Shown: positions 29,840 to 46,935 of the stretch, piece by piece | How the letters are laid out: every line of letters starts with the position of its first letter | How positions within the stretch are numbered: position 1 is the stretch's first letter | DNA from: an uncultured Bacteroidota bacterium | GTDB lineage: Bacteria; Bacteroidota; Bacteroidia; Bacteroidales; SZUA-534 | Assembly: GCA_946404125.1 (NCBI GenBank) | Contig: CAMJCK010000017.1 | Span: 349-64,348 of the forward strand | DNA: 64,000 nt | Direction: 5' to 3' | Made by a program: the position numbers and the translations under genes | The notes under the pieces: generated by a model | Seen by the model: only the letters and a program-made list of their open reading frames with translations | What the model was told of the DNA's origin: nothing | The model's database searches: none

Positions 29840-29954
29840 ACTATTTCTGTTTCTTTTATATGATATGGTCTAATTCTCAATTATTTATCAAACTCTTTAT
29901 AAGCGTACATATGGTATCTATCAATTTTCAAAGTTTAATTTCTGATTCGTTATC

Positions 29955-31040
29955 CTATATTAAATCAGGGAAATCAGGGCAACATCTTTTCGCATTAGTT
30001 TGAGCTAACGCATAACCAACGCTGGTAATTCTAAACCAAAGTGGAATATCTTCGAACCATTCTCTAACCTTTTTAAGGCTCTTATAAGAGTCCCATTTTT
30101 TCATAAAATTTGTCTTTGCCTCTTCCAACAAATGACCATCTTTTGAATAAAGATCAAGTATTGGATTTAGCTCTGATACTAGATCTTCTTTTTGAGCACA
30201 TCTAATACGTAAGTAACCAGGTAAGCATTCGTTAGGAACTAGACTATTTTGGTCATAATTATATTTTGCTAATATCTCTTTTGCTTTTTCGTGTTCCTCT
30301 GATCCTTCCTTAATACCGACACAAACATAACCATCATAATTCGCTGAGAGTATCTTCTTAAGTTCATAAAATTTACCCGTACGTATTCCAATGGCACCAA
30401 GGACATCTAAATGATCTATCCACCTATCTCCTTTTGGCAGTTCAGTAAATAATAGTTTAGAATAGAGTTCATCCATCGTATGCAAGCCGGCATTAACATC
30501 TGGATCTGTTGGATTAATATGAAGTATAGTTGCTACACATGTCAATCCACACAATGAATCATAATCTACTTCATTAACTATTTGAATGGCTCTGTTTATT
30601 CCTGTATCAATTATCAAGTCTTTACCTTTCTCAATATGACAAACTAATAACTGAGTAAGCATATCCAAATCCTCGTCCCGGGAACTCTTTACAGCTGATA
30701 TTTTTGCATCTCTAAGCATAAACTGGAACTTTGGCTCCACTAGTTCATTGACAACATTCTCAATAGTCGTAATTCTTGGAATCCATACTGACTCAAATTT
30801 ATCAATCTTTTGTCTACAAATATCTTCAGAAACCTGAGTACAGAGATTTAATGCTTGTGTAGTCACCTGTGTTGATACTGTTGTTGTAAAAGTAACCACA
30901 TCGGGCAATCCCGGATTGGTTATTGTAATGTTGTTTGTCTGACTCCCGATTATAGTTTGATTGGAATTGTCGCCAATTTGCTGATACTGTGATGAATTAT
31001 CACCAGCCTTTTGCTCTTGATTTGTCTTTGAGATATCCAT
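29955..31040 (-). CDS. Hypothetical protein with N-terminal Q/N/S-rich repeats
   Basis: 361 aa. QKAGDNSSQ, QIGDNSNQ and IGSQTNN repeats, then about 300 aa with no motif I can assign. Confidence 0.5.
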   Translation of the reverse strand: MDISKTNQEQKAGDNSSQYQQIGDNSNQTIIGSQTNNITITNPGLPDVVTFTTTVSTQVTTQALNLCTQVSEDICRQKIDKFESVWIPRITTIENVVNELVEPKFQFMLRDAKISAVKSSRDEDLDMLTQLLVCHIEKGKDLIIDTGINRAIQIVNEVDYDSLCGLTCVATILHINPTDPDVNAGLHTMDELYSKLLFTELPKGDRWIDHLDVLGAIGIRTGKFYELKKILSANYDGYVCVGIKEGSEEHEKAKEILAKYNYDQNSLVPNECLPGYLRIRCAQKEDLVSELNPILDLYSKDGHLLEEAKTNFMKKWDSYKSLKKVREWFEDIPLWFRITSVGYALAQTNAKRCCPDFPDLI

Positions 31041-31042
31041 AA

Positions 31043-31300
31043 CTACATTGTCTGTTTCTGTGTAGAGTTATTGCCAGCTTTTTGTGACTGAGAAATGGTA
31101 TTTTCGTCTTTTATCGATGTTGAGCGAACAGACTGCTCTTGATTAGAACTAAAACCCGCTCTCTGTTTTTGCGAGAGTTTACTTTTAGTTTTATACTTAT
31201 AAACTCCAATTCCTACGCAACAAGATAGGATGAAAACAATAATTGCTATAGCCCATCCATCGAATGCTATTTCCGGATTCAAAATGTTTAAATACATCAT
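31043..31300 (-). CDS. Small single-pass membrane protein with a Q/S-rich tail
   Basis: 85 aa. TM helix WAIAIIVFILSCCVGIGVY, then SQKQRAGFSSNQEQ and SQSQKAGNNSTQKQ repeats of the same kind as the start of the next ORF. Confidence 0.5.
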   Translation of the reverse strand: MMYLNILNPEIAFDGWAIAIIVFILSCCVGIGVYKYKTKSKLSQKQRAGFSSNQEQSVRSTSIKDENTISQSQKAGNNSTQKQTM

Positions 31301-31306
31301 ACATTA

Positions 31307-32434
31307 TCAAGTTTTGTTAATTAGTGATTTAATGACTTTATCTATCGCTTCTATCGCTTTCCGCAACTCCGCTTTGCTTTGCTCGGATTGATTATAAATG
31401 GCAATATATTCGTCTTGCTGTTCAATAGAAGGTACAATCACTGGCATTGAATCGTATTGGGTAGCACTTATATTGGGTTGAGCACCAATTTTTTGTGTTT
31501 TGGACACCCAATTATAGTAAGTACCAGAATGCGTGAATGCTTTCAAAAATTTTGGTCTTATGTCATTCTCTTTCAACTTATATTTAATGAGGTACCCTGC
31601 ATAAATAGCATCACCATATTCGTGAAGATATGTTTTCCCAACAGTGGCGCCTGTTCTGGCAAATAAAATATCATTGATTTCCAATGTGTATTTGTCGTCG
31701 TATGTTTCAGCACTTTTAATGTCATCGTTTAGGGTTCCATCTTCGTTTATGTCTGTAATGCGAATGTAACGTGGTGTTTGTTTTACATAATCAATTGCAG
31801 AAGTGTTAGAACCATATTGCCCAGAAGAAACGGCAACATCAAGTAATTTGCGCACTTTGGTTTTGGGTTTTTCCAATGTCCCAAACATCTCCACAAACTG
31901 CGCCCTCACCATTTCGTCAGTGGCGGCAAGAAGTTTCTTGTACGACTCCTTCAGGCGGTAGGCGGCCCAGAGTTTGTCGGCAAGGGCTTTCTGCTCGGGA
32001 AGTGGGGGTAGTGAGAATTCGTAGTCGGCAAGTGTACTCCAGTTAAGAAAAAAATTTACTCCACCACTCTTGTTTTCTTCGCAATAATTCCAAAAATCAT
32101 CGGTTTGCATAACCAATGCTAAATATTCTTGAAGTAGGACGTTTCGGTCTTTTGTCTCTATAACAAATGTTTTTTCCGAACATATACCATCAAATTCGGC
32201 AACTCCACATTTTTTCAAGTGAGGATTCCGAGTAACAAACAAAATTTGACCTGATTTAAAGCCACAATAAAACATTGGACCAATAGTTGAACCCTTAATC
32301 AGTCCCTTGTCGTGAATTATCAGTTCCTCGGATTCAATATGTTCACCGCCAGCATAATATATTTTGTCGGTATTGAATCTATCTTCTTTTGTATTTGCTC
32401 TATGCGCTACTTCTGAAAATTTAACAATACTCAT
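31307..32434 (-). CDS. hsdS: Type I R-M specificity subunit
   Basis: Two variable halves separated by conserved helices LPPLPEQKALADKLWAAYRLKESYKKLL and VPSIEQQDEYIAIYNQSEQSKAELRKAIEAIDKVI. ATG 32434 overlaps the hsdM stop (ATGA). Confidence 0.88.
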   Translation of the reverse strand: MSIVKFSEVAHRANTKEDRFNTDKIYYAGGEHIESEELIIHDKGLIKGSTIGPMFYCGFKSGQILFVTRNPHLKKCGVAEFDGICSEKTFVIETKDRNVLLQEYLALVMQTDDFWNYCEENKSGGVNFFLNWSTLADYEFSLPPLPEQKALADKLWAAYRLKESYKKLLAATDEMVRAQFVEMFGTLEKPKTKVRKLLDVAVSSGQYGSNTSAIDYVKQTPRYIRITDINEDGTLNDDIKSAETYDDKYTLEINDILFARTGATVGKTYLHEYGDAIYAGYLIKYKLKENDIRPKFLKAFTHSGTYYNWVSKTQKIGAQPNISATQYDSMPVIVPSIEQQDEYIAIYNQSEQSKAELRKAIEAIDKVIKSLINKT

Positions 32435-33963
32435 ACAATGCATTCAATTAATGTTTTATAACAATTATGCACGGCTTGTGATTCTTTTTCCCAATTTTGG
32501 ATAAGTACATTTATATCTTCTGATTCTTTCGTATCACTTGATTTTACATAGTACTTGGGGGAAATTGTATAATTCTTATCAGGAATGCTGTTTGCATCTA
32601 TTACACAGGTGCGACCATCTATTGTACTATAACTGTTGTAAAGCGACAAAATCATATTTATATGATTTTCCGAAAGATAACTCTCCGTGTTTTTGCGCTC
32701 GACAAAATCTGTTGCTTTAATTAGCAAAATCTTTCCTTTTTTCTTTTCTTCTTTATGCTTGCGACAAATAAGAATGCACGCTTCCATTGGTGAATTGAAG
32801 AATAAGTTTTTGCCAATGCTTATTACAGCATCAATTAAATCAGCCTCAATAAGATTCTTCCTAATATCTTTTTCTATTAGCCTATTCAGTATCCCGTGTG
32901 GTAAAAGAATGGCACATCTTCCATTAGTATCATTCATAGAAGCCAAAATATGCTGTATAAATGCATAATCGGCTTTTGATTGCGGTGGTGTGCCAAGGAA
33001 ATTGCGTCCCCATCGGTCGTTCTGGAAGGCATCGCGGTTCCAAGTCTTAATGCTGTAGGGCGGATTGGCGAGCACAATGTCGAACTTGCGCAGGTGGCTG
33101 CCATCGACAAAGGCGGGGTGGGCAAGCGTGTCCTCGCGCACAATGCTGAAGTCTTCAACGCCATTCAGATAAAGGTTCATACGGGCAATGGAAGCGGTGA
33201 GCGCGTTAATCTCCTGCCCAAAAACCTTCACGCCCTGCCAGGGCTGGCCTTTCTGGCGCAGATAGTCGAGACACTTCACAAGCATTCCGCCACTGCCACA
33301 GGTGGGGTCGTAAATGCTCTCGTCGGGCTGTGGCTGCAGAATCTCGGCCATCAGCGTTACCACGGTGCGGTTGGTGTAGAACTCCTGCGCGGTGTTGCCT
33401 GCATCGTCGGCAAACTTGCCAATAAGGTATTCGTAGGCTTGCCCCATCTCATCGGCTGGGCACGAGGCAAGGCTCAGGTTGTAGCGCGAGAAATCCTCAA
33501 TGAGCGAAGTGATTATGTGGTCGGGCATTTTGGCTTTGTTGGTCCAGCCGTCTTTGGGTCCGAAAATGCCTTCCAGTCCGCCAATCACGCGTCCGTCGGC
33601 CTCCTCGCCAGGGTTGGCCTGCTCAATGGCGATAAATGCCTCGACAAGGCGCTGCCCAACGTTTTCGGTCACTTCGCGCACATCGCGCCAGTGGGCTCCG
33701 TCGGGAATACGGATTGCCAGTTCCTCGGCCTGCATACCTGCGTATTCGGCACCTCCCTCGCGCACAAAACCTTCGAACTGCTCGTCGTACACATCGCTTA
33801 TGCGCTTGAAGAAGAGCAGCGGAAAAATGTACTCCTTGTATCCTGCGGCGTCAATCTGTCCGCGCAGACGTGTGGCGGCTCCCCACAGGAACGATTTGAG
33901 TTCGTCGAGCGAAATGGGCGCGTCAGCCTGGCGGTAATTATGTGTTTTGTCTTCTTCTTTCAT
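32431..33963 (-). CDS. hsdM: Type I R-M N6-adenine DNA methyltransferase subunit (paralogue B)
   Basis: HsdM N-terminal region YKEYIFPLLFFKRISDVYDEQ, motif I DPTCGSGGML, motif IV VLANPPYS. ATG 33963 lies 2 nt after the upstream stop. Confidence 0.9.
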   Translation of the reverse strand: MKEEDKTHNYRQADAPISLDELKSFLWGAATRLRGQIDAAGYKEYIFPLLFFKRISDVYDEQFEGFVREGGAEYAGMQAEELAIRIPDGAHWRDVREVTENVGQRLVEAFIAIEQANPGEEADGRVIGGLEGIFGPKDGWTNKAKMPDHIITSLIEDFSRYNLSLASCPADEMGQAYEYLIGKFADDAGNTAQEFYTNRTVVTLMAEILQPQPDESIYDPTCGSGGMLVKCLDYLRQKGQPWQGVKVFGQEINALTASIARMNLYLNGVEDFSIVREDTLAHPAFVDGSHLRKFDIVLANPPYSIKTWNRDAFQNDRWGRNFLGTPPQSKADYAFIQHILASMNDTNGRCAILLPHGILNRLIEKDIRKNLIEADLIDAVISIGKNLFFNSPMEACILICRKHKEEKKKGKILLIKATDFVERKNTESYLSENHINMILSLYNSYSTIDGRTCVIDANSIPDKNYTISPKYYVKSSDTKESEDINVLIQNWEKESQAVHNCYKTLIECIV

Positions 33964-33965
33964 AC

Positions 33966-35495
33966 TCAAATGTTTATCACATTCCTGAACTCCGCCTCAC
34001 GCATTTTCACTTCCTCGTAAGCCGCCTTGAATTCGGCAAGCACTTCGGCATAGGGGCGAGTTTCCTCTTTGTGGTACTGCACATATTTGTTTGGCGACAG
34101 GTCGTAATTCTTTGCGGCAATCTCGTCGAGCATAACCACTTGCGAATAGTCCTCAACATTCTCGTAGTTGGCATAGAGTTCGTAGAGGCGGTCAACATCT
34201 TTTGGTTCGAGAATGTTCTGTGCGCGTTTCTGGGTGAGGATTTTTGTGCCGTCAATCATCAGAATGCGTGCACTGTGGGCAGCGGGTTTCAACTTGCGCA
34301 GAATGAGGAAGCAAGGCGAGAGTCCTGTGCCGTAGAAGAGTTTGTCGCCAAGCGTGACAACGGCTTCAACCAGGTCGCTCTTTACCAGTTTCTCACGTAT
34401 GCGGCCTTCCTCGTTGCCACGGAAAAGAACTCCCTGCGGCATCACCACCGCCATACGACCGTTGCCAGGCGCCATCGACACTATCATATGCTGAATCCAG
34501 GCATAGTCGCCGCACGAGTCGCTGGGCGTGCCCCAAATGTTGCGCCCGAACTTATCCGACGACCATTCAACCGAGCCCCATTTCTCAAGCGAGAAGGGCG
34601 GATTGGCAATCACGCAGTCGAACTTGGCCACTTCGCCGCCTTGCAGAATCTTCGGGTTTCGAAGGGTGTCGCCCTGCATAATGTTGAAGTCGCTGGCACC
34701 GTGCAGAAAGAGGTTCATCTTGGCAATGGCCGAGTTAACCACATTCTTTTCCTGTCCGAAGATACTGCCGCAGCACAGGCTGCTGTGGTGCATATGGTGG
34801 ACAGCCTCAATAAGCATACCGCCACTGCCGCAGGCGGGGTCGTAGACGGTTTCACCTGGTTGGGGGTCAAGAATACGAACCAAGAGTTGCACCACGGGGC
34901 GCGGTGTGTAAAACTCGCCAGCCTGGGCTTTTGAGTCGTCAGCAAATTTTTTGAGCAAAATCTCGTAGGCGTCGCCCATCAAATCGGAAGGGTAATCGTT
35001 GTTGCCCAGATTCTTTGTACTCAAATGCTCAATCAGGTCACGAATCTTTCCGTCGGAAAGGTTTTTCTTGTCGGTCCATTTTTGCGCGCCGAACATACTC
35101 AACACGCCAAAAAGGGTATCGGGGTTGGCCAATTCTATTCCGCGCATAGCACCCACAATGGCGGCACCGAGGTTCTCGGTACGCTCGCGCACATCTTTCC
35201 AGTGGCAACCATCGGGAATGACAAATCGGTGCTGCTCGGGCAGGGCGGCGTATTCCTCATCGCCGCCGCTGTCGGCCAAGGCTATCTGTGTCTCCTCGTC
35301 ATAGACGTCCGAAATGCGCTTATAGTAGAGAATTGGGGTGATATAATCTTTGAAGTTGTCCTGGCTGACAGGGCCCCGCAGAATGTTGCACGCCTCGAAC
35401 AGGAAGTTATACAGGTTCTGCACTCCTTCGAGCCGTAATTCTTGCGGTGTCTTGGCAACATCAGCCGAATCCTTTTTATTGTTTTTCTTCGCCAT
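33966..35495 (-). CDS. hsdM: Type I R-M N6-adenine DNA methyltransferase subunit (paralogue A)
   Basis: FKDYITPILYYKRISDVYDEE, motif I DPACGSGGML, motif IV VIANPPFS; 509 aa. Confidence 0.9.
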   Translation of the reverse strand: MAKKNNKKDSADVAKTPQELRLEGVQNLYNFLFEACNILRGPVSQDNFKDYITPILYYKRISDVYDEETQIALADSGGDEEYAALPEQHRFVIPDGCHWKDVRERTENLGAAIVGAMRGIELANPDTLFGVLSMFGAQKWTDKKNLSDGKIRDLIEHLSTKNLGNNDYPSDLMGDAYEILLKKFADDSKAQAGEFYTPRPVVQLLVRILDPQPGETVYDPACGSGGMLIEAVHHMHHSSLCCGSIFGQEKNVVNSAIAKMNLFLHGASDFNIMQGDTLRNPKILQGGEVAKFDCVIANPPFSLEKWGSVEWSSDKFGRNIWGTPSDSCGDYAWIQHMIVSMAPGNGRMAVVMPQGVLFRGNEEGRIREKLVKSDLVEAVVTLGDKLFYGTGLSPCFLILRKLKPAAHSARILMIDGTKILTQKRAQNILEPKDVDRLYELYANYENVEDYSQVVMLDEIAAKNYDLSPNKYVQYHKEETRPYAEVLAEFKAAYEEVKMREAEFRNVINI

Positions 35496-35635
35496 TATTG
35501 TTCAACTACGCAGTGATATGCTTATCAGTCAGCACTTTTTATTCGCTCTTTTTATCCTTACAATGATAAGGAAAAAAGGAACAATATAATCATTTTTGGT
35601 GGTTGCGCTTGGTTTGTTTATAAGTATTGCTGATG

Positions 35636-37450
35636 TCATTGGACTTTTCCCGCAATATACTCTCTCAAATACTTAAACGGGAACGGAACCACAGTCAGTT
35701 GACCGTTTCGCACGAAAGTGACAGCCATTAGTTTTAACATTTCGGTGAAAAACAAATCGCTGTATCTGTAAGCGTCAACCATTCTGATATTTGCTGCTGT
35801 AGGAATCACTCTTCGCATACCTGCACCTATTATTCCTGAAAAATAGCACAACGAATGGTCATTGTCAGAAAAGCACTTGATATCTGTTATTGCAGGGAAC
35901 AATTCTTCACGGCTTTCAATGTTTCGGAGTTTATTGTCACCGCTTTCTAATCGGCTCTTTATAAGTTCAATTTCGGGAATTGTTCTCAATTTGGTGTCAT
36001 AGATAACATTAATATCATTCCCCTTTTTAACAACGCCCACCACATCTTCATTTCCAAATATATCAACACATTCCTGATACTCATTCTGCTCAAACAGAGT
36101 GTTTTCTTGTTTCGCTATCGAGAAATCGCCATCGTGTGAGATTGTCATAAAGTAGAAATCCTTTTTCTCGTCATCGTCTTTATGGCACACCCCGAATATT
36201 AGGTTGTCTGGATAATTGTAATCTTGCCAATTAACCATTGATATGCGCTTTGACACAAGGTCTTCTTTGATGAGTGCTTCTTGCATTATGTTATCTAACA
36301 ATGAATTCAATTCTGTTTTTTTGCTATCATCATCAGAGTTCATCAAGTGCGCTATGGTTTCAATTGTGACGTGTTGTAAGGCGCAGCCTTTGTACACCAA
36401 GTCGTGCGGGTCTGCCTTATTTTCGTATTCTTCCTCTTTGTGAATAAGAATAATGTTGATTGCATCTTTTTTGGGGCTTTTTAGAACCGACACATCGCAA
36501 TTAAAATGTTCTAATAGTTCTTCCTTTAGAAATTCAATATTTAATGATGATGTCGAATCCTGCACTTTGTCAACCAATACTATTCTGCGCAAAGAAGCCA
36601 TTTCTTCAAATCGTTTCTCCATTTCTTTGACCATTTTGGTAGAAACAGATAACTCTTGATATTCGTCAAAGAAGTCGAATTCAATGTGAGCCATCTTGCC
36701 AAATGCCGCGTTGAATTTGTCGATGCAGTCACATACGACTCCCATTTTTGTTTTTTGGAAGTTCTCCAACGAGTCGATTTCGAGGAATTTGATGTTGGAT
36801 TTCTTATTAGCGGTTTGTCGCATAATATAGGCGTCAGGGTCAGCACCTTTCTCGATTCTCTTCAAGATATTGTCTTTGCCGAGAACATATTCAGGATATT
36901 CGTTGAATTTCTTCTTGCCGAATTTGATATCGTTTTTCTTTGTGACGGACGTGAATGTTCTTACACTCCAGTCCAAAAGCAATTCCTTTGTTACTTTTAA
37001 TTCCAAAGTGATTAGTTGTTTGCCTTTCGATTTAGTCCAAGATGGATGATTAATATAGAAATGCCCAGTAACGTTGTGGAATCCAAGAATTTTGCCTTCG
37101 TATGTTCCCAATGAATTGAGCAATAACTGAACAACAATATTTTGTGGTACCGTGCTTATTGCGACATTTTCAAAAGATATTTTCTCTGTTCCAGGCAGTC
37201 TGTCTATGGCCTTACCAAGGTTTATTCTGTTTTCGGCAGACTTCTTAAGCATCATATAAAACGAATTGCCACGCTCGTAAACAACCGATAATACAAATTT
37301 TTCATTAGTCAAATCGTCCACCAATTTGGCTGCGTTGTTTCCTTTCCCGAAATGCGTGTCGGAAGTCTTAACGTTAAAAAACTCGTATGTATCAGACAAC
37401 AAACCTAATTCAAGATTCGCAATCAATTTGTTAGTTTGTATTCTGCTCAT
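35636..37450 (-). CDS. Argonaute-like (MID-PIWI-like) protein, predicted catalytically inactive; DdmE-like partner of the upstream helicase-nuclease
   Basis: 604 aa. The ORF itself is solid (20-nt overlap with the upstream gene). Ago-like cues: INIILIHKEEEY...DLVYKGCALQHVT (MID-like Y-K...Q), LIFGVCHKDD where PIWI proteins have GxDV, and the C-terminal VVPFPFKYLREYI resembling the P-x-P-x-x-Y-A tail motif. Fold assignment unverified. Confidence 0.4.
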   Translation of the reverse strand: MSRIQTNKLIANLELGLLSDTYEFFNVKTSDTHFGKGNNAAKLVDDLTNEKFVLSVVYERGNSFYMMLKKSAENRINLGKAIDRLPGTEKISFENVAISTVPQNIVVQLLLNSLGTYEGKILGFHNVTGHFYINHPSWTKSKGKQLITLELKVTKELLLDWSVRTFTSVTKKNDIKFGKKKFNEYPEYVLGKDNILKRIEKGADPDAYIMRQTANKKSNIKFLEIDSLENFQKTKMGVVCDCIDKFNAAFGKMAHIEFDFFDEYQELSVSTKMVKEMEKRFEEMASLRRIVLVDKVQDSTSSLNIEFLKEELLEHFNCDVSVLKSPKKDAINIILIHKEEEYENKADPHDLVYKGCALQHVTIETIAHLMNSDDDSKKTELNSLLDNIMQEALIKEDLVSKRISMVNWQDYNYPDNLIFGVCHKDDDEKKDFYFMTISHDGDFSIAKQENTLFEQNEYQECVDIFGNEDVVGVVKKGNDINVIYDTKLRTIPEIELIKSRLESGDNKLRNIESREELFPAITDIKCFSDNDHSLCYFSGIIGAGMRRVIPTAANIRMVDAYRYSDLFFTEMLKLMAVTFVRNGQLTVVPFPFKYLREYIAGKVQ

Positions 37451-40400
37451 TTTTAAATTCTTGTATTTTGGTTAAAGCATTATGTGATATTTGGGAATTG
37501 CATATTAACGACAACTCAATGATTTCAAAACCATTTTCTGGCGTTGTTGTTATTGCGTCATTCTTTGTATCTCTAACATTTGCAATTATCACAGTCCTTA
37601 CTTCCTTGCACCTTTTGGCTTTTTCAACGACTTTCTTGTGATATTCTTTAGCATCGAAGCGTGTTGTATCTTTCCAATACTTGAAATCGACATATATGGG
37701 TTCCCCTGTTACCTTAAAATCAAATAATTCGTGTTCTTCATTGTTTAATTCTTCCAATGGGATGCCAAAACCTTCGAAAAGGAACTTCCCGATTGCTTCG
37801 CCAAGTGCCCCTTTATAGACATTCTGATAAAGTGGTGGCGACATAATATAATCGCCTTCTCTAAATTCTGTTGCATATCCATTATCAAGAAAGAACGATT
37901 TTAAATTGGGTATACTCTCCAAAAGATTGTAAAGATTAACGTCTTCCTGCGAAACAGATGTCGAATCTTTAAATCTTTCTTCTGCTATATTCTCAATTTT
38001 GTCAAAATCCTCACTTTGTTTGTAGAAGTATTTGCTGATTGGTTTGCCAAATGTGATATAGTGCCCCTTGAATGGGCTGTCTTTCCATTCTTCTATTGTC
38101 AAAGTTGGATGTTTTAAAACATATTCACGTAACCCACTCCATTTTTTAATTTCCTCGTTATTCCAAGTGTTTTCAAAACATCTTGTGAGAAACTTAGAAA
38201 TGCGTTTGTTCGACAATAACGAATCGCTAATAGCAATTTCGATAACCCTGCTTTGTGAAGGCTCTTCTGAGAATTTTAGTTTTTCCGCCAGTTCCACCAT
38301 CTCGTGATTTAACAATCTGCCTTCTTCCAATAGAGTGGTTCTGTCTAATGCATCACCAAGTTCAGAGTCTGCCAAAACATAAACATTCTTACTGCGATAA
38401 TTGGTTCGGCATTTTCTACCCATTGCCTGAACAATGATTTTAGTTGCATATATTTTTACATCGCGCAAATTCGATAGTTTTTTCATGGTACCAGTTGTTC
38501 TCTCTTTGTCGATGTTTATATATGTTCTCTTTATTTCAGACATTTTTTCATTTGGAGTTATTTCTCTTTTATGACCAAGATATTCCAATTGGAATATTCT
38601 GTTTATCGCAGATTCTTCATTGCCACCGCACAGATTAACAAGAGAAGTCGGTTTGTCCAAATAAATGCCTTCAATATCCATTTCTTCTTTTTTCCTGTCA
38701 TTGTTGATTTTTATGACTTCACTCTTCTTGCAGTCAGGTATGGGGTATTGTAGATTTTGACCTGCGCCGATTGTAGCATAAGTCGAGATAATGAATCTTC
38801 GCTCGCCTTTGCTCAAGTCACCGATTAGTTCTTTTTTCTTTTGTTCAAAATTGTCAGAATCCAAAACCACACACATTTTGTCTTCAAAACGGACACATTT
38901 TTCCTGAGATAGATATTTAAAAAGTTTAAAAAGTTTGTCCTGGTCAAATTCCCAATCACCTTTTCTCAAGCCTCTTGAAAACAAGGCCAAATACGATTGA
39001 ATGTTGTTGTCTAAAAATTGCTTGAACGCTAATACGGCTTTGTAGTATCTTACTTCTTTATATGTATCACCATTACAATGCGTGGTTAGATGCGCATTAT
39101 TTGCTATTTCTGCATCAGAGTATATGTTTGCCCAATCTGGTGCGTTATTTGCAGATGTCTCAGTAAATTCCACAATTGTATTTACATTCTCAAATCCTGT
39201 TGTTTGGCTTTCAATGAACTTTTTTATCCTTTCTTTATCTTCAGCTGTCGGTTTCACAAACCTATCGCCCAATTTCCATTCCAGATAGTCAATGTCATAA
39301 TTGCCCAATACGGTTTTAAATGTTGCTGTGGCAGATATTCCGATTACTTTTGAAAGAGAACAAATCGAATACATTATACTTTCAGGAGTGTCCTCAAAAA
39401 CATATTTTTTTATAACCGTTGTGTTATCGTGCGAATAATCGTCACAGAAATCGTAATGGCTGAATCCGCTTGAGTAAAAGCCGAAATCATCTTTTATTTC
39501 AGCATTGTTTGACTGTATCTTCAACGTGTTGTTATATGACAAAGCCATATTTCTAATAACCCTGTAACTCTCTCCTTGCAGGTGTAATGAGTCAAGTATC
39601 GTATCAAGAGCGTGTAATTCTGTAAATTCACCATAAGACTTGCCTGGCTCTTTCTTTTGGTTTTTGTTTTGATAGTAACTATAAGCCAATATGCAAACAA
39701 ATCGTGTGAAATGAGAAATCGCACCCTTTATTTTGTCTAACGCTTCATATAGAGTCGTGTCCGATTCACCTTTCGAAATGAGTTCCAGGGTATTGATATT
39801 TTCATTTTTGATAAATCTTGTTGTTACATTCTCTTCGCTGGTTGTATAATTATTGTGAGTTAAATCGGAAAACAAAACAATGCGTTTTTCTTCAAAGCCG
39901 ACAGATTTATGGTGTTGTAGCAAGTGATATTTGTCGGAGATTTCATTAAAGATTCTAATGTTTTTTTCGAGAGCGCGTTTATGAGACGGCTTGTTTTTGA
40001 CGTTATCCCATATATTCGATGGTATTGATTCCTGATTGTCAAGGCATATTTTGATATTCCTAAAAAGGTCAATATAGTCTATACCATTGTTCAGACCATT
40101 TTGAACAATCACATCTTGAATCTCTTTTTTCGTCGCATCAAACTCGTCAATGAACACTATGGAATTTTTGAAAAAGGAAGTTTCATAAAGTCTGACACCT
40201 TTTTCAATGATTGTGTCGAAAGGAAGAACTAATTTCTTCATCGTCACGAAAAAAACACTTTTCTCTTCGGAGAAAACGGCAGGGTACAAATCTCCCACCC
40301 ATTGCCAACTTTTGTCATTCTTGATGGCATTTATTTTTTCTGTTTTCTTCTTGAATTTTCGAGAAAGAGTTTTGCTTATCAATCCTCTGAAATCCCGTTC

Positions 40401-40796
40401 AATATCAACGTATGCTTCAGGATTCTTAACACCTGCCATTATTAAGGCTTCAAACTTTTTATACTCTTCCGAGTACCGTATGTCTTTGTCTTTAATGTTT
40501 TCCTTGACTTTCTCAAAGTTTTCAATGGCAGAATCTTTATTGGAAAGTGCCCTAAAAACTAAATCCCGCAATTCGTCATCTTTATCCAAATCGTCCAATA
40601 GTTCCTCGTATGGGTCATCCACGTTTTTTATTAATGATGTAACGAAGAATATCTTTTTGCCTTGATTCTTTTTAAGATATTGTTTGATGAATTGTAAAAC
40701 ATTAAAGGTTTTTCCCGTTCCTGTTGGCATATCTAACAGTAACAATCCAGTATTCTTTGTTTTATCCAGACAATATTTGCTAATTAATTCCAACAT
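37431..40796 (-). CDS. SF2 helicase fused to a C-terminal PD-(D/E)xK nuclease; DdmD-like
   Basis: 1121 aa. Motif I LLDMPTGTGKTF, motif II VFIDEFDATK, motif III GISATATF, motif V STYATIGAGQNLQ, motif VI IVQAMGRKCR. C-terminus GALGEAIGK...ELFDFKV...IYVDFKYWK (E, D, D-x-K). Confidence 0.7.
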   Translation of the reverse strand: MLELISKYCLDKTKNTGLLLLDMPTGTGKTFNVLQFIKQYLKKNQGKKIFFVTSLIKNVDDPYEELLDDLDKDDELRDLVFRALSNKDSAIENFEKVKENIKDKDIRYSEEYKKFEALIMAGVKNPEAYVDIERDFRGLISKTLSRKFKKKTEKINAIKNDKSWQWVGDLYPAVFSEEKSVFFVTMKKLVLPFDTIIEKGVRLYETSFFKNSIVFIDEFDATKKEIQDVIVQNGLNNGIDYIDLFRNIKICLDNQESIPSNIWDNVKNKPSHKRALEKNIRIFNEISDKYHLLQHHKSVGFEEKRIVLFSDLTHNNYTTSEENVTTRFIKNENINTLELISKGESDTTLYEALDKIKGAISHFTRFVCILAYSYYQNKNQKKEPGKSYGEFTELHALDTILDSLHLQGESYRVIRNMALSYNNTLKIQSNNAEIKDDFGFYSSGFSHYDFCDDYSHDNTTVIKKYVFEDTPESIMYSICSLSKVIGISATATFKTVLGNYDIDYLEWKLGDRFVKPTAEDKERIKKFIESQTTGFENVNTIVEFTETSANNAPDWANIYSDAEIANNAHLTTHCNGDTYKEVRYYKAVLAFKQFLDNNIQSYLALFSRGLRKGDWEFDQDKLFKLFKYLSQEKCVRFEDKMCVVLDSDNFEQKKKELIGDLSKGERRFIISTYATIGAGQNLQYPIPDCKKSEVIKINNDRKKEEMDIEGIYLDKPTSLVNLCGGNEESAINRIFQLEYLGHKREITPNEKMSEIKRTYINIDKERTTGTMKKLSNLRDVKIYATKIIVQAMGRKCRTNYRSKNVYVLADSELGDALDRTTLLEEGRLLNHEMVELAEKLKFSEEPSQSRVIEIAISDSLLSNKRISKFLTRCFENTWNNEEIKKWSGLREYVLKHPTLTIEEWKDSPFKGHYITFGKPISKYFYKQSEDFDKIENIAEERFKDSTSVSQEDVNLYNLLESIPNLKSFFLDNGYATEFREGDYIMSPPLYQNVYKGALGEAIGKFLFEGFGIPLEELNNEEHELFDFKVTGEPIYVDFKYWKDTTRFDAKEYHKKVVEKAKRCKEVRTVIIANVRDTKNDAITTTPENGFEIIELSLICNSQISHNALTKIQEFKNEQNTN

Positions 40797-41074
40797 AAAA
40801 TAACGCTTCTTTTAATCAAATTAAATCACAAAGATATTGGAACTGCAAAAAGTGTTGGCACGATTTGACACAAAACATTTGGCTGATTTATAGAAGGGAA
40901 GGTATTCCACAGCATGCTGTTGTTGGGCGTTGCTAAGTGGGGAAAAAATACCAAACTATAATGCGTGATATTTCCGCACTCGTTGAGACGGGCATATTGT
41001 TCGTCAAGGTGGGCGAAAAGAAAGTCGGCAGTTTTTGCCAAAAAAGTTATAGGTTATTTTGGGTCACCGAGATT

Positions 41075-41290
41075 TCAATTTATCATATCCCGATATAAGT
41101 CGGCAGGACCGAGGTGCCACAGTTTTGTCTCTTCCTGCTCCATATGTTTGTAGGTGTCTGACAGATACACTGCTTTGATAGCATCGACAAGGCTGACATT
41201 GTTGTGTTCCTGCACGAAACCAGCCATTCGGCTCACCTTCGATGGCAGCAACAAGTACAAGTTCTGCTGGGTTATTTCTCCAATCATCAT
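41075..41290 (-). CDS. Small DUF3791-like protein
   Basis: 71 aa, with a 4-nt overlap to the upstream gene. Family call from memory of the DUF3791-DUF3990 gene neighbourhood. Confidence 0.4.
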   Translation of the reverse strand: MMIGEITQQNLYLLLPSKVSRMAGFVQEHNNVSLVDAIKAVYLSDTYKHMEQEETKLWHLGPADLYRDMIN

Positions 41291-41778
41291 ATCCTTATCT
41301 CCTTTGCTTCAGCAAATATAATGCTTTTGAGCGAACGCGCAGTATGAAACAGATATTGGTCGATGAGGGAATATGTGCGCAGTTCTGCAATTAGCGCCTG
41401 TTTACCTATCACGCCACCCTCGTACAATGCGAAAGCCGCATACACACGGTCGTTGGCCACAGGTCCATACACTATATCATAATCGTGAGTAAATCCTTCC
41501 TGCATACGATTTGCCATCACAAAATCAACCCATTCTTCGGTGGGAGCCTGAAACGATATTGTTTTTAGTGATTGCATTGCATCAGTATCAAACTCATACA
41601 CATTTACATAGCCAGTGTCCAATTTGTTTTCTTTCATACGTCGCTGCACCCACCGCAACGCTTGGTCGTACGATGTGGTTGTATAGAATCCGTTTCCATA
41701 ATCGAGTGTGCGCTTTGCCACTTTTATCTCTGGATTCTCAACCTTCTCTATGCTTCCGTGGTATAGTTTGATTTTCAT
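41287..41778 (-). CDS. DUF3990-like protein
   Basis: 163 aa. N-terminus MKIKLYHGSIEKVENPEI...LDYGNGFYTTTSYDQALRW as in DUF3990 proteins. 4-nt overlaps on both sides. Confidence 0.5.
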   Translation of the reverse strand: MKIKLYHGSIEKVENPEIKVAKRTLDYGNGFYTTTSYDQALRWVQRRMKENKLDTGYVNVYEFDTDAMQSLKTISFQAPTEEWVDFVMANRMQEGFTHDYDIVYGPVANDRVYAAFALYEGGVIGKQALIAELRTYSLIDQYLFHTARSLKSIIFAEAKEIRI

Positions 41779-41999
41779 TTATTTTTCTTTTCTCTGATGC
41801 CAATATACTCATCAATATCTTCAAGTATCCACTGACAACTCTGTGTATGCAGTACATCGTAGTTGTCTTCCAGATAACCGAGCACGCCAAATTTGTCGAG
41901 TTTCAGCATAGCCTGCTCGCCAGTCAGTTTTTTGGCATTCTTGTATTGCTCAATGCAGAACGATACAAAATAGGCAATGTCTTGCTCTCTGCTGCTCAT
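41775..41999 (-). CDS. DUF3791-like protein
   Basis: 74 aa. IAYFVSFCIEQYKNAKKLTGEQAMLKLDKFGVLGYLEDNYDVLHTQSCQWILEDIDEYI. Confidence 0.5.
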   Translation of the reverse strand: MSSREQDIAYFVSFCIEQYKNAKKLTGEQAMLKLDKFGVLGYLEDNYDVLHTQSCQWILEDIDEYIGIREKKNK

Positions 42000-42107
42000 A
42001 GTTGGTGTATTATCCGAACACTATTTGTTTTTGCAATTATAGCGATTTTTCATTTTTGATGTTGCATGTCAACTATTGGCCGAGTCCAATTACTCAATGC
42101 ACATAAG

Positions 42108-42194
42108 TCACTCAAACAACAGTGACTGCTCAAGTGCAGTGTCAGATTCGCCAAGCAGTTCGTACATATTATTGAATTGTGCAGAAACATTCAT
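42108..42194 (-). CDS. 28-codon mini-ORF translationally coupled to the 622-aa gene
   Basis: MNVSAQFNNMYELLGESDTALEQSLLFE. Its ATG overlaps the TGA of the upstream gene (ATGA). A homologous truncated copy lies at 44656-44722. Confidence 0.35.
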   Translation of the reverse strand: MNVSAQFNNMYELLGESDTALEQSLLFE

Positions 42195-44059
42195 AATGCG
42201 CAGCCATTTTTATTCCAATTTTCATTCACGTCAGCCCAACAACGGCTTTTAGCAAGAACATTCCATAATTCAGCATTGCCCGACATCAAGAGTGACTTGT
42301 TTGAGATGCGAGTCTTTCCAAGTAGACAGTCTAATGTGTCTAAAATAGTTATGAACGAGAGCACCGATTGGTATTTAAACTCACACCCGCCTTTCCCTTC
42401 CTCATAAATGTCAGCATTCCACTTTTTTATGTAATTGTTGTACATGTCAGCCAAATCGATTGAATCTGCTGATTGAACATTTTTCAGATAATCGGAAATT
42501 ATTAGAGCCTGCATGGCATTATGGCTGTCAACATCTTGAAACTCACGGCTTATACCGAGTTTGCTCTTGTAAGCAACAAACGGTAACGATTCTACCATAT
42601 CATTCACATATTGACGGTAAAAACCTTCTAAATGCTTGAAATCGTCAGCTGAAATCCAATAGCACATCTGGTCGCTACGATTGCAAGTGGCTATTTTTGC
42701 CGCAAAATTGTTCTTCGCATTTTCGAGCATATATCGCAGAGAGTCCATGAAAATTGTTTGAATATCAGAGCGTTTGATATAGGCATATACTTTAATGTTT
42801 TTTGGGCGATTTGGCAAAATCTTTTCGTTGTCCTCTTTCCGAATGTAATATACTTGAACCCAGTATCCCGAATTTACGTTCGCGAGTGATTCCGTCCAAT
42901 AGGAATTACCTTCCGATAGTTTTTTAAGAGACTTGGCAAATTCGTTGCAATCTCGCACAATGCGATTATTCTCGTCAATTTTTTGAAAATACCTGTAAAC
43001 ATCGTAGTGGTCAAAACTAGGCAAAAACCGATTGTATAACATTTTGAGCAAATCGGTTAGCTCCGAGTATTTTCTTGAAGCCTTGTCAAAAGTTTTTCCC
43101 CTGATTCCAAAATTGGGCGATAGTTTTGGAATTTGGTCAGACAAATCGATGGCGTACCTTCTTTTTTCTTCTTCGACGCTTTTGCGGTGTAGTTGCTCTT
43201 TTTTGAATTCCTGCCGTTCAATTTCTTTTCGGCCTTTTGCTATAATATTAGTCCAATCTTTTGAGTCATGTACCAAAGGCGTATAATTGAACTTATATTG
43301 TTTTCCCGCATCAACAATTATATCGCCAAAATCGCCTTTCAAATCGTGTATCTGCGCGGAAAAATATGTATAAGTAATTCTTTTTGAATAATATTCTGTC
43401 TCTTCTGATTCATCGCCGATTTGCAGGAAATAGTCGCAATATTTGTAAATGTCTTCGACCGCAAATTGTCCTAAAAAATCATCCATCTTCTCTGAATAAC
43501 CATTTTGTTGAGCGACAATTTCCAATTGCACAAGATTGTCTATTAAGACAGCAAGTCGGGCGTTTCTGTTGTGGTTCAATATGTTAAGCAGAAGATGCAA
43601 CGAATTAGCCAAATCGTCATTATTGGCAGTTTCCGCAATAATGTCAAGTACCTTCCTATATCTATAATCATCTACGTCAACGCAATCATAGATATATTTA
43701 TAAATATCAGACATTTTGTGTGTTACATATTCCAAAGTCTTTTCATAACCATTAGCATCGAAATCGGAAAAGTCGAGATACAAGACTTGATACCTGTTGA
43801 TTTCTCGCTCAAAAAAGTCCAATCCCGAAACTTGTAGTTTCCCGAAGACACCTTTCGTATCAATATTCTTGTCAAGAAAGCACGCTAATGTCTTCAGGAA
43901 AAACGATGAGCCTGTTCCCGCACAATTGCATAATGTATGATATCCAGGATAGAACAAATACCCGAAACACATGGTCTTGTCAATGTATTTGTCCGTTTTT
44001 AAAAATTCGATTATCTGCGTGTAATTAAGCATAGTAGGCTTTAATTTAGGAAGTTCCAT
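42191..44059 (-). CDS. AAA-ATPase-like (PF09820-type) N-terminal domain protein with a degenerate P-loop and an unassigned C-terminal half
   Basis: 622 aa. KTDKYIDKTMCF matches the YVDKT box of the family. NCAGTGSSFFLKTL sits where the family has RPRRFGKS, and VLYLDFSDF follows. The C-terminal about 350 aa are unassigned. Confidence 0.5.
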   Translation of the reverse strand: MELPKLKPTMLNYTQIIEFLKTDKYIDKTMCFGYLFYPGYHTLCNCAGTGSSFFLKTLACFLDKNIDTKGVFGKLQVSGLDFFEREINRYQVLYLDFSDFDANGYEKTLEYVTHKMSDIYKYIYDCVDVDDYRYRKVLDIIAETANNDDLANSLHLLLNILNHNRNARLAVLIDNLVQLEIVAQQNGYSEKMDDFLGQFAVEDIYKYCDYFLQIGDESEETEYYSKRITYTYFSAQIHDLKGDFGDIIVDAGKQYKFNYTPLVHDSKDWTNIIAKGRKEIERQEFKKEQLHRKSVEEEKRRYAIDLSDQIPKLSPNFGIRGKTFDKASRKYSELTDLLKMLYNRFLPSFDHYDVYRYFQKIDENNRIVRDCNEFAKSLKKLSEGNSYWTESLANVNSGYWVQVYYIRKEDNEKILPNRPKNIKVYAYIKRSDIQTIFMDSLRYMLENAKNNFAAKIATCNRSDQMCYWISADDFKHLEGFYRQYVNDMVESLPFVAYKSKLGISREFQDVDSHNAMQALIISDYLKNVQSADSIDLADMYNNYIKKWNADIYEEGKGGCEFKYQSVLSFITILDTLDCLLGKTRISNKSLLMSGNAELWNVLAKSRCWADVNENWNKNGCAL

Positions 44060-44123
44060 TTCAAAAATGGAAAAGACTTTATTAATATTCTATTAAGAGT
44101 GTGACGAATGAAAAACAGATCAT

Positions 44124-44513
44124 TTACTTGTTTGTTTTAGCTTCGCACCAGTCTACTATTTTATTTGCCGTTTCTGTTCCGATTTTGACTATGACATAAG
44201 ACTTTTCGCCGTCGTAGCTCATTGATAAATGCATTACATTATATCCACTGGTAAGCAATGTAGTCAGTTTTTTGCCTTTTCGCGAAGCTGCCATTTGGTA
44301 GTCTTTGATATCTAACCGACCTTTTTTTGTTTTTTTTATATTTAGTGCGTAATCAAGTGCTATTAAACATCCTGTCCATAATGTATGACCTGCAATCTTT
44401 ATGTATTTTGAATCAATATAATAGTCACCATCTCTGATTGCTCTTTCTTTTAATATTTCATTAGCATCAGATATATGCCTACGTGCTTCTTCTATTGGAT
44501 TTCTCTTTTCCAT
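44124..44513 (-). CDS. DUF5618-like small protein
   Basis: 129 aa from ATG 44513. NPIEEARRHISDANEILKERAIRDGDYYIDSKYIKIAGHTLWTGCLIALDYAL resembles Bacteroides DUF5618 proteins (from memory). Confidence 0.4.
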   Translation of the reverse strand: MEKRNPIEEARRHISDANEILKERAIRDGDYYIDSKYIKIAGHTLWTGCLIALDYALNIKKTKKGRLDIKDYQMAASRKGKKLTTLLTSGYNVMHLSMSYDGEKSYVIVKIGTETANKIVDWCEAKTNK

Positions 44514-44655
44514 TTTTTCAAATTTTGAATATTGAATTTGTTCAGTAGGAAAGACATTCAACCACACAATGATCGGAACTATTTTGAAGTAGCCGTTTTA
44601 TTGCCCACGAGAATAGTTACAATTCCATAAGTGTTTTTTTAATAATTATAATGAG

Positions 44656-44722
44656 TTACTCGAACAATTTTGATTTCTCAAGCGGTAAATCTGATTCGCC
44701 AAGTAGTTTGTTAAAGGCAGAG
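44656..44722 (-). other. Truncated copy of the mini-ORF element, in the +1 frame at the end of the 159-aa ORF
   Basis: Encodes YSAFNKLLGESDLPLEKSKLFE-stop with no start codon. Over the aligned 17 residues, 12 are identical to the 42108-42194 ORF. Confidence 0.45.
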
Positions 44723-45190
44723 TATGTATAGAGCCGAGAGAGCCAGCATTACATTTTTCAGGTTGGCGCGCTGATAGTTCGGAATGCTATTCTCAGGTTC
44801 GTCGATCCTATAATGTTTGACAAGATTGTATTCCTGCCACCACCCAGCGGCAGACTCACTATCGAATCCAGCAAACGGAACCAAATTGATTTTTTCATAG
44901 GGGTATCTTGTGGATACTTTCTGGTTCTTAATCGAAGGTTCATTGTCAACAATTATGGCCATCTTTTGTAATATGTTCTTTGCTTTGGGCGAAGTTTTGA
45001 CAATCTTGCAGTATTCCTCGGCAATAGAATCGACCTCGCTGCAAATATTCAAAAACAAATAAATGTAGCGATGGGAAAATGTCTTGTAGTTGCTTTTGTC
45101 AATAGCAACATATTCTTCCGTTTCAAGAAAATCTTTTTCAAGCAAAAGATACTGTTTCCAGAAGATTTTGGTAAATAATTGTGGTGTCAT
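44711..45190 (-). CDS. Hypothetical protein, possibly HEPN-like
   Basis: 159 aa, all-helical looking. C-terminal GWWQEYNLVKHYR...ANLKNVMLALSALYIL resembles the motif helix region of Abi-type HEPN proteins. Weak assignment. Confidence 0.35.
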   Translation of the reverse strand: MTPQLFTKIFWKQYLLLEKDFLETEEYVAIDKSNYKTFSHRYIYLFLNICSEVDSIAEEYCKIVKTSPKAKNILQKMAIIVDNEPSIKNQKVSTRYPYEKINLVPFAGFDSESAAGWWQEYNLVKHYRIDEPENSIPNYQRANLKNVMLALSALYILCL

Positions 45191-45225
45191 GATTCTGTGT
45201 TTTAGGTTTGTTATTCTGTATTGAA

Positions 45226-45330
45226 CTATACTCTATTAAAATCGCCCGTTACGTTGAGTGGATTTTCGACAAGAAACTGCTCGTTCTGCGAGAATTCCAA
45301 ATGTAAATCGCTGACAAATTGAATGCGCAT
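45226..45330 (-). pseudogene. 5' fragment of a metallophosphoesterase gene (34 codons, then stop)
   Basis: MRIQFVSDLHLEFSQNEQFLVENPLNVTGDFNRV-stop. It carries MPE motif I (D-x-H: SDLHLE) and motif II (GD), then ends. Confidence 0.55.
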
Positions 45331-45432
45331 TGTTTTGTATTGGATTTATGACGGATTATGCTCTGTAATTTAAGTTATTACTACATCATGTATATTGTTC
45401 TTAAAGTCAAATGTGCAACTTGACATTTAATC

Positions 45433-46017
45433 TTAAAAATATCGGAAATACTTGCTGAACAACTTGAAAAACTCACTTTTGCATTTTTCGCGGTAACGCT
45501 CTATTTCCTTTTCGCACTTGCGATACGAATTCCATACTTTGCTGTATTCCTTCCCGTTAACAGGGTCATCTATGGGTGTGTACATCCGAATGCCATCGCT
45601 TTTTTTATCTTCTTCCGTTTGCAACTTCTCACCTAAAAAACCATATTTCTTTTCAAAGATTCTCTCTATTCGGTTCCACTCTTTGTCGTATGGATTTTTC
45701 ATAGAACATTTGTTTTCGTTCATCTCGTCGGCGAGAAAGACCAAATGCTGAATCATATCTAACCAGCGTTTTAAATACATGTAATTTTCTTCGGTACTAA
45801 GAGGTTTGTCAAAACTGATAATATTCCCTTTCTCGTCCAACAAGAAGAATCCTGGAGTCTTTTTTGCCAACTGCTTCAGCATCGGACTGATTGTGTTACA
45901 AAACCAATAATCTATCGATAATACATCGCTGTCGCTGAACCCGCGTTTTGCCCTTTGTTTTGACATTCGCTCTTCATATTCAAAGTCTATTATTTCTCGT
46001 GTGTGCTTTTTCGCCAT
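45433..46017 (-). CDS. Hypothetical protein
   Basis: 194-aa ORF, K/E-rich, with no motif I can assign. Confidence 0.5.
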   Translation of the reverse strand: MAKKHTREIIDFEYEERMSKQRAKRGFSDSDVLSIDYWFCNTISPMLKQLAKKTPGFFLLDEKGNIISFDKPLSTEENYMYLKRWLDMIQHLVFLADEMNENKCSMKNPYDKEWNRIERIFEKKYGFLGEKLQTEEDKKSDGIRMYTPIDDPVNGKEYSKVWNSYRKCEKEIERYREKCKSEFFKLFSKYFRYF

Positions 46018-46073
46018 AGTTGCTAGTATTAAATTGATACTCGGTTAATGCGTTTAAATATAATTCTTTTTAA

Positions 46074-46155
46074 AAAATCGCCCATTAGTGAGTGGTCGGG
46101 TGCGGTCGCAGGTACAACTTCAACTAATGGACTTAATCAGAAAGGCAATGCGCAC
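46074..46155 (-). pseudogene. Second, more decayed copy of the metallophosphoesterase 5' fragment
   Basis: GTGCGCATT... start (versus ATGCGCATT) and ...CCACTCACTAATGGGCGATTTT end (versus CCACTCAACGTAACGGGCGATTTT). The middle has diverged and a stop follows 11 codons in. Confidence 0.3.
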
Positions 46156-46200
46156 CTAAACCATTGGTCATTAACGCATTCTGATTCATTGGTGATTTTA

Positions 46201-46890: not shown

Positions 46891-46935
46891 AGTTATTTGG
46901 TTTTAAGGGTTATACAATGTATTAGCAATTCTCTA

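Follow-up and report, generated by a model that had tools for sequence, protein, structure and literature searches.

DdmDE systems have been characterised in only two organisms, Vibrio cholerae and Lactobacillus casei. The V. cholerae system (VC1771/VC1770; PDB 8U0J, 8U3K, 9EZY and others) is the founding member and has reportedly been studied by Jaskolska in 2022, Bravo in 2024 and Yang in 2024. In both solved complexes, a helical hairpin in the HD2 domain of the helicase-nuclease DdmD lies between the INS domain (INS/DID) and the C-APAZ/L1 region of the Argonaute-like protein DdmE. INS has been described as conserved in the 'long-C' prokaryotic Argonautes (pAgos), all current models, that of a 2026 review among them, centre the recruitment of DdmD on INS, and a mechanistic paper places DdmDE in Vibrionaceae and Lactobacillaceae. 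Here we describe a ddmD-ddmE gene pair, with a DdmE that lacks INS, in a 64,000-nucleotide (nt) stretch of contig CAMJCK010000017.1 (assembly GCA_946404125.1) from an uncultured rumen Bacteroidales bacterium. This whole stretch is called the window below.

The ddmD gene (37431..40796) encodes a superfamily 2 (SF2), DinG/XPD-like helicase of 1121 amino acids (aa) with a C-terminal PD-(D/E)xK nuclease, and ddmE (35636..37450) encodes a 604-aa inactive Argonaute of the DdmE ('long-C') clade. Both open reading frames (ORFs), like all features within them given below, are on the minus strand. They share 20 nt, from the ddmE start to the ddmD stop (37431..37450, from the ORF coordinates), and translational coupling through this overlap is probable. 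An earlier note made from the letters of the window had placed both ORFs correctly and had read them as a DdmDE-like helicase-nuclease and inactive Argonaute-like pair. Sequence, profile and fold searches all agree with this, finding a DdmE/Argonaute fold in the 604-aa protein and, in the helicase C-terminus, the DdmD fold with a full set of five PD-(D/E)xK residues. We consider it likely that the pair is a functional DdmDE-family defence module, working by the mechanism proposed below and carried on a mobile island integrated at a tRNA-Ser gene.

Both proteins find their closest counterparts, in sequence as in fold, in the L. casei system (PDB 9IX4, 9IW3, 9IXM; Huang et al., 2024), at an identity of only about 18-21 %. 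The domain order is the same in DdmD (HD1-insertion-Arch-HD2-nuclease) and in DdmE (N-L1-small PAZ-L2-MID-PIWI), the PIWI domain is inactive in both, the Q/E/K/K/E residues of the guide pocket are identical and the residues that kink DNA align. The window DdmD is about 70 aa shorter than that of L. casei (LcDdmD), mostly in the N-terminal insertion region. With the V. cholerae system, from a host of a different phylum, the window pair has in common the ddmD-then-ddmE order, five DdmE pocket residues and, one for one, the five nuclease residues (Loeff et al., 2024).

Pfam and NCBIfam recognised no family in DdmE, and their sole match in DdmD was an N-terminal ResIII/Cas3-like stretch. These general libraries leave the system unnamed, so that comparisons with PADLOC and the PDB were needed. 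The earlier note had proposed a distant, compact Bacteroidales version or an undescribed relative of DdmDE. The pair is indeed distant and compact, but it is less undescribed than proposed because the existing PADLOC DdmD and DdmE models already match both proteins, and 'Bacteroidales version' is too narrow for a pair with homologues in several phyla. It is thus not a new kind of system. What is new is a class of DdmE, large and spread over several phyla, that naturally lacks INS and often has a His-type pocket.

The PADLOC DdmD model matched the window DdmD at 8.2e-42. In PDB sequence searches, the match to LcDdmD (9IX4) covered aa 54-1076 (6.6e-53) and the match to V. cholerae DdmD (VcDdmD) covered aa 433-1061 (about 1e-38). 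We also built an AlphaFold2 (AF2) model of the protein (predicted local distance difference test score, pLDDT, 85.4; predicted template modelling score, pTM, 0.86). The first 20 Foldseek matches to this model were all full-length DdmD chains (E 2.6e-56 to 1e-46; TM score relative to the query, TMq, 0.68-0.76) with about 1200 columns aligned, and the model and Foldseek together match the DdmD architecture HD1 - insertion/IDD - Arch - HD2 - nuclease. The next structural matches were DinG/XPD, at about 1e-11 and over the helicase core alone. The long insertion reported earlier between motifs II and III is real and is the Arch domain, which DdmD has in common with DinG/XPD-type helicases. The N-terminus showed weak matches to the PADLOC Cas3 and type IV DinG models.

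All the strings that the earlier note quoted from DdmD were located, and they are well past chance because their key residues are invariant in 32 homologues of 33-97 % identity. Motif I (Walker A, MPTGTGKT) lies at 40707..40730 (aa 23-30), with P24, T25, G26, G28, K29 and T30 invariant, and motif II (DEFD) at 40137..40148 (aa 217-220, within FIDEFD 215-220), with D217, E218 and D220 invariant. Motif III (ISATAT; 39321..39338, aa 487-492) has S488, A489, T490 and A491 invariant; motif V (TIGAGQNLQ; 38748..38774, aa 675-683) has T675, G677, G679, Q680 and N681 invariant; and motif VI (QAMGRKCR; 38406..38429, aa 790-797) has Q790, G793, R794, C796 and R797 invariant. The PD-(D/E)xK core, placed by alignment to VcDdmD, lies at 37680..37799 (aa 1000-1039) and is marked by the strings GALGEAIGK (aa 996-1004), EHELFDFKV (1021-1029) and VDFKYWK (1036-1042). 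In a residue alignment, E1000, E1023, D1026, D1037 and K1039 correspond to VcDdmD E1059, E1082, D1085, D1100 and K1102, and this E-E-D-D-K pentad is also invariant in the 32 homologues. Plasmid elimination is lost when pentad residues of VcDdmD are substituted by alanine (Loeff et al., preprint). Since no catalytic residue has changed even in homologues of 33 % identity, these alignments argue for purifying selection on DdmD activity.

DdmE gave weaker matches in single-sequence comparisons, 1.2e-10 with the PADLOC DdmE model, 9.9e-15 with L. casei DdmE (LcDdmE) and 2e-8 with V. cholerae DdmE (VcDdmE) in PDB sequence searches. A family profile built from 30 members matched LcDdmE end to end at 4.2e-42 (positions 3-595 on residues 6-704) and VcDdmE at 7e-24. 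The top six Foldseek matches to the AF2 model (pLDDT 85.2, pTM 0.84) were all DdmE structures (8e-32, TMq up to 0.66), with canonical Argonautes below them at about 1e-9 and TMq about 0.3. In place of a canonical PAZ domain there is a C-APAZ. The segment that aligns with the L. casei PAZ residues 166-200 is 41 aa long in relatives with and without INS alike, and it forms a beta-hairpin in the AF2 model (strands 186-189 and 195-198).

The strings quoted from DdmE in the earlier note were likewise all found in the protein. Its assignment of LIFGVCHKDD (36173..36202, aa 417-426) to the first PIWI beta-strand holds in the AF2 model, and Cys422 stands where the first catalytic Asp would be. Across the family this position is K, C, R, S or A. 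We found no conserved acidic triad or DEDX tetrad in the PIWI lobe across the family alignment, where D523 (89 %) is the sole conserved acidic residue besides the pocket residue E597. Because the first-Asp site is variable and an acidic triad is not conserved, the PIWI domain is predicted to be catalytically inactive, like those of characterised DdmEs. A catalytically active long-A pAgo such as TtAgo or CbAgo was considered and rejected, given the missing DEDX tetrad and the 41-aa PAZ substitute; TtAgo matched the DdmE model only at E about 1e-7 with TMq about 0.3.

The pocket that would hold the 5' end of the guide lies in the MID domain at 36266..36412 (aa 347-395) and, by profile alignment, is lined by D347, H349, Q359, E391 and K395. 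Two of the residues proposed earlier, Q359 (in ALQHVT) and K395 (in EALIK), belong to it; Y353-K354 of DLVYKG do not, and His349 (in ADPHD) takes their place. The Argonaute-like tail VVPFPFKYLREYI (35654..35692, aa 587-599), also noticed earlier, aligns with the DdmE tail and supplies K593 and E597. Together, Q359, E391, K395, K593 and E597 correspond to V. cholerae Q376, E401, K405, K674 and E678, of which K674 and E678 touch the Mg2+ ion by which the guide 5'-phosphate is coordinated. The Y/Q/E/K residues of the L. casei pocket map onto H349/Q359/E391/K395, so that the pocket Tyr (V. cholerae Y363, L. casei Y339) is His349 in the window and five of the six V. cholerae pocket residues are kept.

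An exhaustive protein search returned 1,219 clusters at E <= 1e-3, and we compared 177 full-length relatives drawn from the best-scoring 150 of these clusters plus the close family. K395 and K593 are present in all 177, E597 in 174 and Q359 in 169, E391 varies little if at all, and D347 is 100 % conserved across the family. Position 349 is His in 97 of the 177 and Tyr in 77.

The mechanism proposed here is taken by homology from the V. cholerae and L. casei systems. Catalytically dead DdmE would hold a short single-stranded DNA (ssDNA) guide, with its 5' end in the MID pocket formed by H349, Q359, E391 and K395 together with K593 and E597 of the tail. The guide would pair with a complementary strand in the DNA of the invader, most probably a plasmid, to give a D-loop. 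DdmD, as a 5'-3' DinG-like helicase with a PD-(D/E)xK nuclease, would be loaded on the displaced strand, translocate with ATP and degrade the DNA. DdmD may, as its homologues do, form an autoinhibited homodimer through the Arch and insertion domains, although the dimerisation regions are where it diverges most. Because DdmE has no INS/DID, the hand-over would have to use such contacts as are left, those of C-APAZ and L1 with the conserved HD2 hairpin, the displaced single strand, or both.

DNA guides and plasmid targets are presumed for the window system on the precedent of the two characterised DdmDE systems, both of which attack plasmids with DNA guides. The main target could instead be phages or conjugative/integrative elements rather than small plasmids, possibly with 5'-OH DNA or RNA guides bound via the His pocket. 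The rumen Bacteroidales host, an island full of systems usually read as anti-phage and the frequency of His in place of the pocket Tyr (97/177 family members) are in keeping with this, as are reports that LcDdmE accepts 5'-OH guides and binds RNA weakly. However, K395, Q359, E391, K593 and E597 are conserved and their V. cholerae counterparts contact the Mg2+-bound 5'-phosphate, and in view of this and of the plasmid targets of both known systems we regard a different main target as doubtful.

The feature that sets this DdmE apart is at the INS/DID site (L. casei 510-616), which is the sole large deletion in the profile alignment to L. casei and V. cholerae DdmE. In LcDdmE a 107-aa INS (aa 510-616) binds DdmD HD2 and the 5'-proximal duplex, and the V. 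cholerae INS/DID consists of four helices and is required. By contrast, the window DdmE has a two-helix stub of about 30 aa, a residual 'mini-INS' (35843..35977, aa 492-536), which bridges the flanking PIWI strands in the AF2 model (helices at 493-501 and 510-516; numbers in the model are one lower than the true residue numbers). The compact size of the protein, which the earlier note had right, is due to this missing domain, a cause that it had not seen.

In the 177 relatives we took P492 and Y536, both invariant, as anchors and measured the length of the INS segment that they delimit. The segment is 45 aa in the window DdmE and 130 aa in LcDdmE, with a median of 118 aa in the class that has INS (INS+). 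The distribution is bimodal; 141 relatives have 30-59 aa and 36 have 100-129 aa, and none falls between. All other segments (N, L1, C-APAZ, L2, MID and both PIWI halves) have equal median lengths in the two classes, and one cassette of about 73 aa is the sole difference in architecture. Most of the sampled relatives are INS-less, and these occur in Bacteroidota, Clostridia, Fibrobacter, Treponema and others, although the class proportions are skewed towards INS-less because the search profile was built from INS-less sequences. On a crude neighbour-joining tree of 178 tips, midpoint-rooted and with the INS segment excluded, the INS state follows the clades, changing only 6 times, and the largest purely INS-less clade holds 97 tips. 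DdmD length showed no dependence on the INS class in a comparison that included just one INS+ locus with a DdmD partner. We found no mention in the literature of DdmDE in Bacteroidota or of an INS-less DdmE, although Bravo (2024) and Jaskolska (2022) could still contain one.

A scan of species-representative genomes yielded 46 loci. In 42 of them ddmD is directly upstream of ddmE on the same strand, and the remaining four are cut by contig ends. The two genes usually overlap, and they overlap or abut in nearly all related loci, with start codons approximate. No conserved third gene or regulator was found around these loci, the commonest neighbour family being present in 6. The best locus (99 %) is in Salinivirgaceae bacterium Tb.RUG.317, a rumen metagenome-assembled genome (MAG; L001). 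The others are in Bacteroidales/Paludibacteraceae, many Clostridia (Oscillospiraceae, Lachnospiraceae, Ruminococcus and others), Fibrobacter, Treponema, Erysipelotrichaceae and one Alphaproteobacteria MAG. The relatives carry only the public names 'hypothetical protein' and 'DEAD/DEAH box helicase family protein'. Plasmid collections gave two weak megaplasmid matches and phage collections gave none. The earlier note had reasoned that a pair conserved as core genes in all relatives, with no defence phenotype, would speak against its reading; the pair is instead patchy, across phyla and on mobile islands.

Two of these loci are of separate interest. Treponema bryantii NK4A124 (NZ_ATWV01000006.1; L039), whose record is named as a strain rather than a MAG, has an INS-less DdmDE and could be of use as an experimental host; its pocket position is apparently Lys, neither His nor Tyr. 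The 138-kb contig JAILLP010000036.1 (Paludibacteraceae RUI231) holds two divergent INS-less DdmDE loci (L004 and L019) about 90 kb apart, whose DdmEs are 67 % and 37 % identical to the window DdmE.

The HD2 hairpin of DdmD lies at 39009..39113 (aa about 562-596), with helices at 562-572 and 578-596 in the AF2 model. It appears to be the counterpart of the V. cholerae S603-A633 bundle, which is wedged in between INS and C-APAZ of DdmE. Among the 32 homologues, R583 and Y584 never vary and Y579 hardly does. In a hand-counted alignment, Y579 and R583 probably correspond to the L. casei DNA-kink residues Y629 and R633, and L. casei R632, which contacts INS, aligns to Val582. Because INS is absent while the HD2 hairpin is retained, recruitment of DdmD in the INS-less class would have to be INS-independent. 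The existence of this class conflicts with the INS-centred recruitment model. We tentatively suggest, with somewhat less than even confidence, that INS-less DdmEs form a distinct DdmDE subtype in which DdmD is recruited or activated otherwise than by INS-centred hand-over.

Several points weigh against the reading of the pair as a functional DdmDE module. Deletion of INS in V. cholerae DdmDE leads to loss of activity, and because of this an INS-independent hand-over remains conjectural. A comparison of segment lengths between the classes showed no compensating insertion in INS-less DdmEs, and no columns conserved specifically in INS-less DdmEs were found. The PADLOC and V. cholerae matches are partial, covering DdmD aa 455-1075 and DdmE aa 212-431, and similarity to the V. 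cholerae proteins does not extend beyond aa 433-1061 in DdmD and two stretches in DdmE. The N-terminal dimerisation regions of DdmD are divergent, similarity to V. cholerae beginning only at aa 433. In addition, His for the pocket Tyr might alter the guide 5'-end preference, and a function for INS-less DdmEs, here or elsewhere, is suggested by homology.

Some of these results could also be explained if INS-less DdmE just opens and stabilises the D-loop and DdmD loads itself on ssDNA with no specific DdmE interface. The main DdmD-binding element of both solved complexes is absent, and neither a compensating insertion nor a class-specific conserved motif was found. In the literature, long enough ssDNA alone dissociates and activates L. 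casei and V. cholerae DdmD dimers in vitro, and V. cholerae DdmD and DdmE form no complex without DNA. However, ddmD and ddmE are strictly adjacent and overlapping, which suggests co-evolving partners. Also, the C-APAZ/L1-HD2 contacts of both solved complexes could persist because DdmE still has its C-APAZ segment and DdmD its HD2 hairpin, both of them conserved. Coupling through DNA alone is therefore, in our judgement, unlikely.

The effect of the engineered INS deletion on V. cholerae DdmDE also raises the idea that the window pair is a decaying or inactive remnant, disabled by loss of INS. Against this, INS-less DdmEs occur in several phyla and in large coherent clades (97 of 178 tips in one pure clade), their partner is always a full-length DdmD whose helicase and nuclease catalytic residues are all unchanged even at 33 % identity, the guide-pocket residues are conserved and both ORFs are intact. 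Because the clades are coherent, the catalytic and pocket residues kept and the ORFs intact, long-term purifying selection is required, and we rejected a decayed remnant as very improbable.

A functional DdmDE module also fits the genomic setting. An exact 18-nt direct repeat, AATCCCTCTCTCTCCGCA, occurs at 17282-17299 and at 54785-54802, where 0 would be expected by chance. The left copy is the 3' end of a tRNA-Ser(tga) gene (17213-17299). The two copies bound a 37.5-kb island (17282..54802), and GC content is low between them. A tyrosine integrase gene (53340-54620) adjoins the right repeat, and a second integrase gene (50957-52099) and a MobC/NikA gene (52143-52772) are inside the island, which looks like an integrative, mobilisable defence island. 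We rejected, as extremely improbable, a housekeeping role in which a DinG-like helicase-nuclease serves in repair and its neighbour is unrelated. DinG and XPD do come next among the structural matches to the helicase core, but DinG reaches 1e-11 against about 1e-56 for full-length DdmD. The pair also sits amid restriction-modification (R-M) and Abi genes in an island of low GC with an integrase and att repeats, and it is patchy across phyla with variable neighbours, one contig having two divergent copies (L004 and L019).

Immediately downstream of DdmDE is a Type I R-M locus (25085-35495) with tandem hsdM genes (33966-35495 and 32431-33969), hsdS (31307-32443) and hsdR (25085-28012). Between hsdS and hsdR are two ORFs without a family match (31043-31300, 85 aa; 29955-31040, 361 aa) and a gene for a Schlafen/AlbA_2 and HATPase_c_4 protein (28157-29839). 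Like TgvAB in V. cholerae, the arrangement may represent a 'type I-embedded' defence cassette. In the VPI-2 defence region of V. cholerae, DdmDE likewise adjoins a Type I R-M locus with embedded genes, and both systems thus have such a neighbour on an integrase-bearing island. V. cholerae has a WYL/HTH regulator upstream, whereas the window locus does not. In the intergenic region between the hsdR start and the end of the Schlafen-like gene (28004-28170) there are two short repeat arrays with an 11-nt period and TTACGTGCGAA / TTATAACCGAA-like units, possibly a regulatory or phase-variation element.

Other island genes also resemble defence genes. An SF1 helicase with a DUF2726/DUF559 nuclease-like C-terminus (21405-23627) matches the helicase regions of PADLOC Mokosh MkoA/MkoC, and an AbiEi-like gene (24440-25018; 2.4e-52) has no obvious AbiEii partner adjoining it. 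Directly upstream of ddmD is a gene for a DUF3990 protein (41287-41778) that matches the PADLOC models PDC-M13B (2.6e-62), PDC-M13A and PDC-M10A, which stand for candidate defence systems. Further upstream is a run of same-strand genes (42191-50725), none of which matches PADLOC. It encodes an AAA-ATPase_like protein (622 aa), a DUF5618 protein, three proteins of 159, 194 and 229 aa for which no family match was credible, three metallophosphoesterases in a row (46936-49204) and a 499-aa protein without a match. The run could be an operon for defence or accessory functions that has yet to be characterised. A scan of 35.3-41.4 kb for promoters and terminators gave counts equal to those in shuffled sequence, with scan models that omit Bacteroidota promoter types. 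Outside the island is a type II CRISPR-Cas locus (898-6594) with genes for Cas9 (2179-6594; 1471 aa, RuvC_III and HNH), Cas1 (1230-2177) and a probable Cas2 (898-1233).

As a comparison, the long-B pAgo-nuclease BPAN and the short pAgo systems SPARTA and SPARDA also use a dead Argonaute as a guide-directed sensor for a separate effector. They act through nucleases or NADases that become activated and in most cases bring about abortive infection, whereas the window effector would be a processive helicase-nuclease. They also use RNA guides and have other domain sets (APAZ fusions), and SPARTA is far below DdmE in Foldseek (E 0.04). Type I CRISPR Cascade-Cas3 and type IV-A CRISPR-DinG are similar in functional analogy only; in these, a guide module opens an R-loop or D-loop and passes the displaced strand to a helicase or helicase-nuclease. 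Their sensors are not homologous to DdmE, the guides of DdmDE are presumed to be DNA, and there are no array or adaptation genes belonging to the window pair, arrays in the window not having been searched for.

Together, these data indicate that DdmDE is widespread yet unannotated in gut and rumen anaerobes. There is a large, evolutionarily stable class of DdmE without INS, in which both proteins keep their catalytic and guide-binding residues, the pocket Tyr often being His. If this class is a distinct subtype, recruitment of DdmD could occur purely via C-APAZ/L1 and the HD2 hairpin or purely via the displaced DNA strand, INS would be an accessory module rather than the core of the system, and the His-type pocket could shift the guide 5'-end preference. 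The INS-less class is a natural experiment on the minimal coupling of an Argonaute sensor to a helicase-nuclease, and it offers a smaller scaffold for engineering. It also bears on plasmid carriage in Bacteroidales and rumen bacteria and on the genetic tractability of these organisms.

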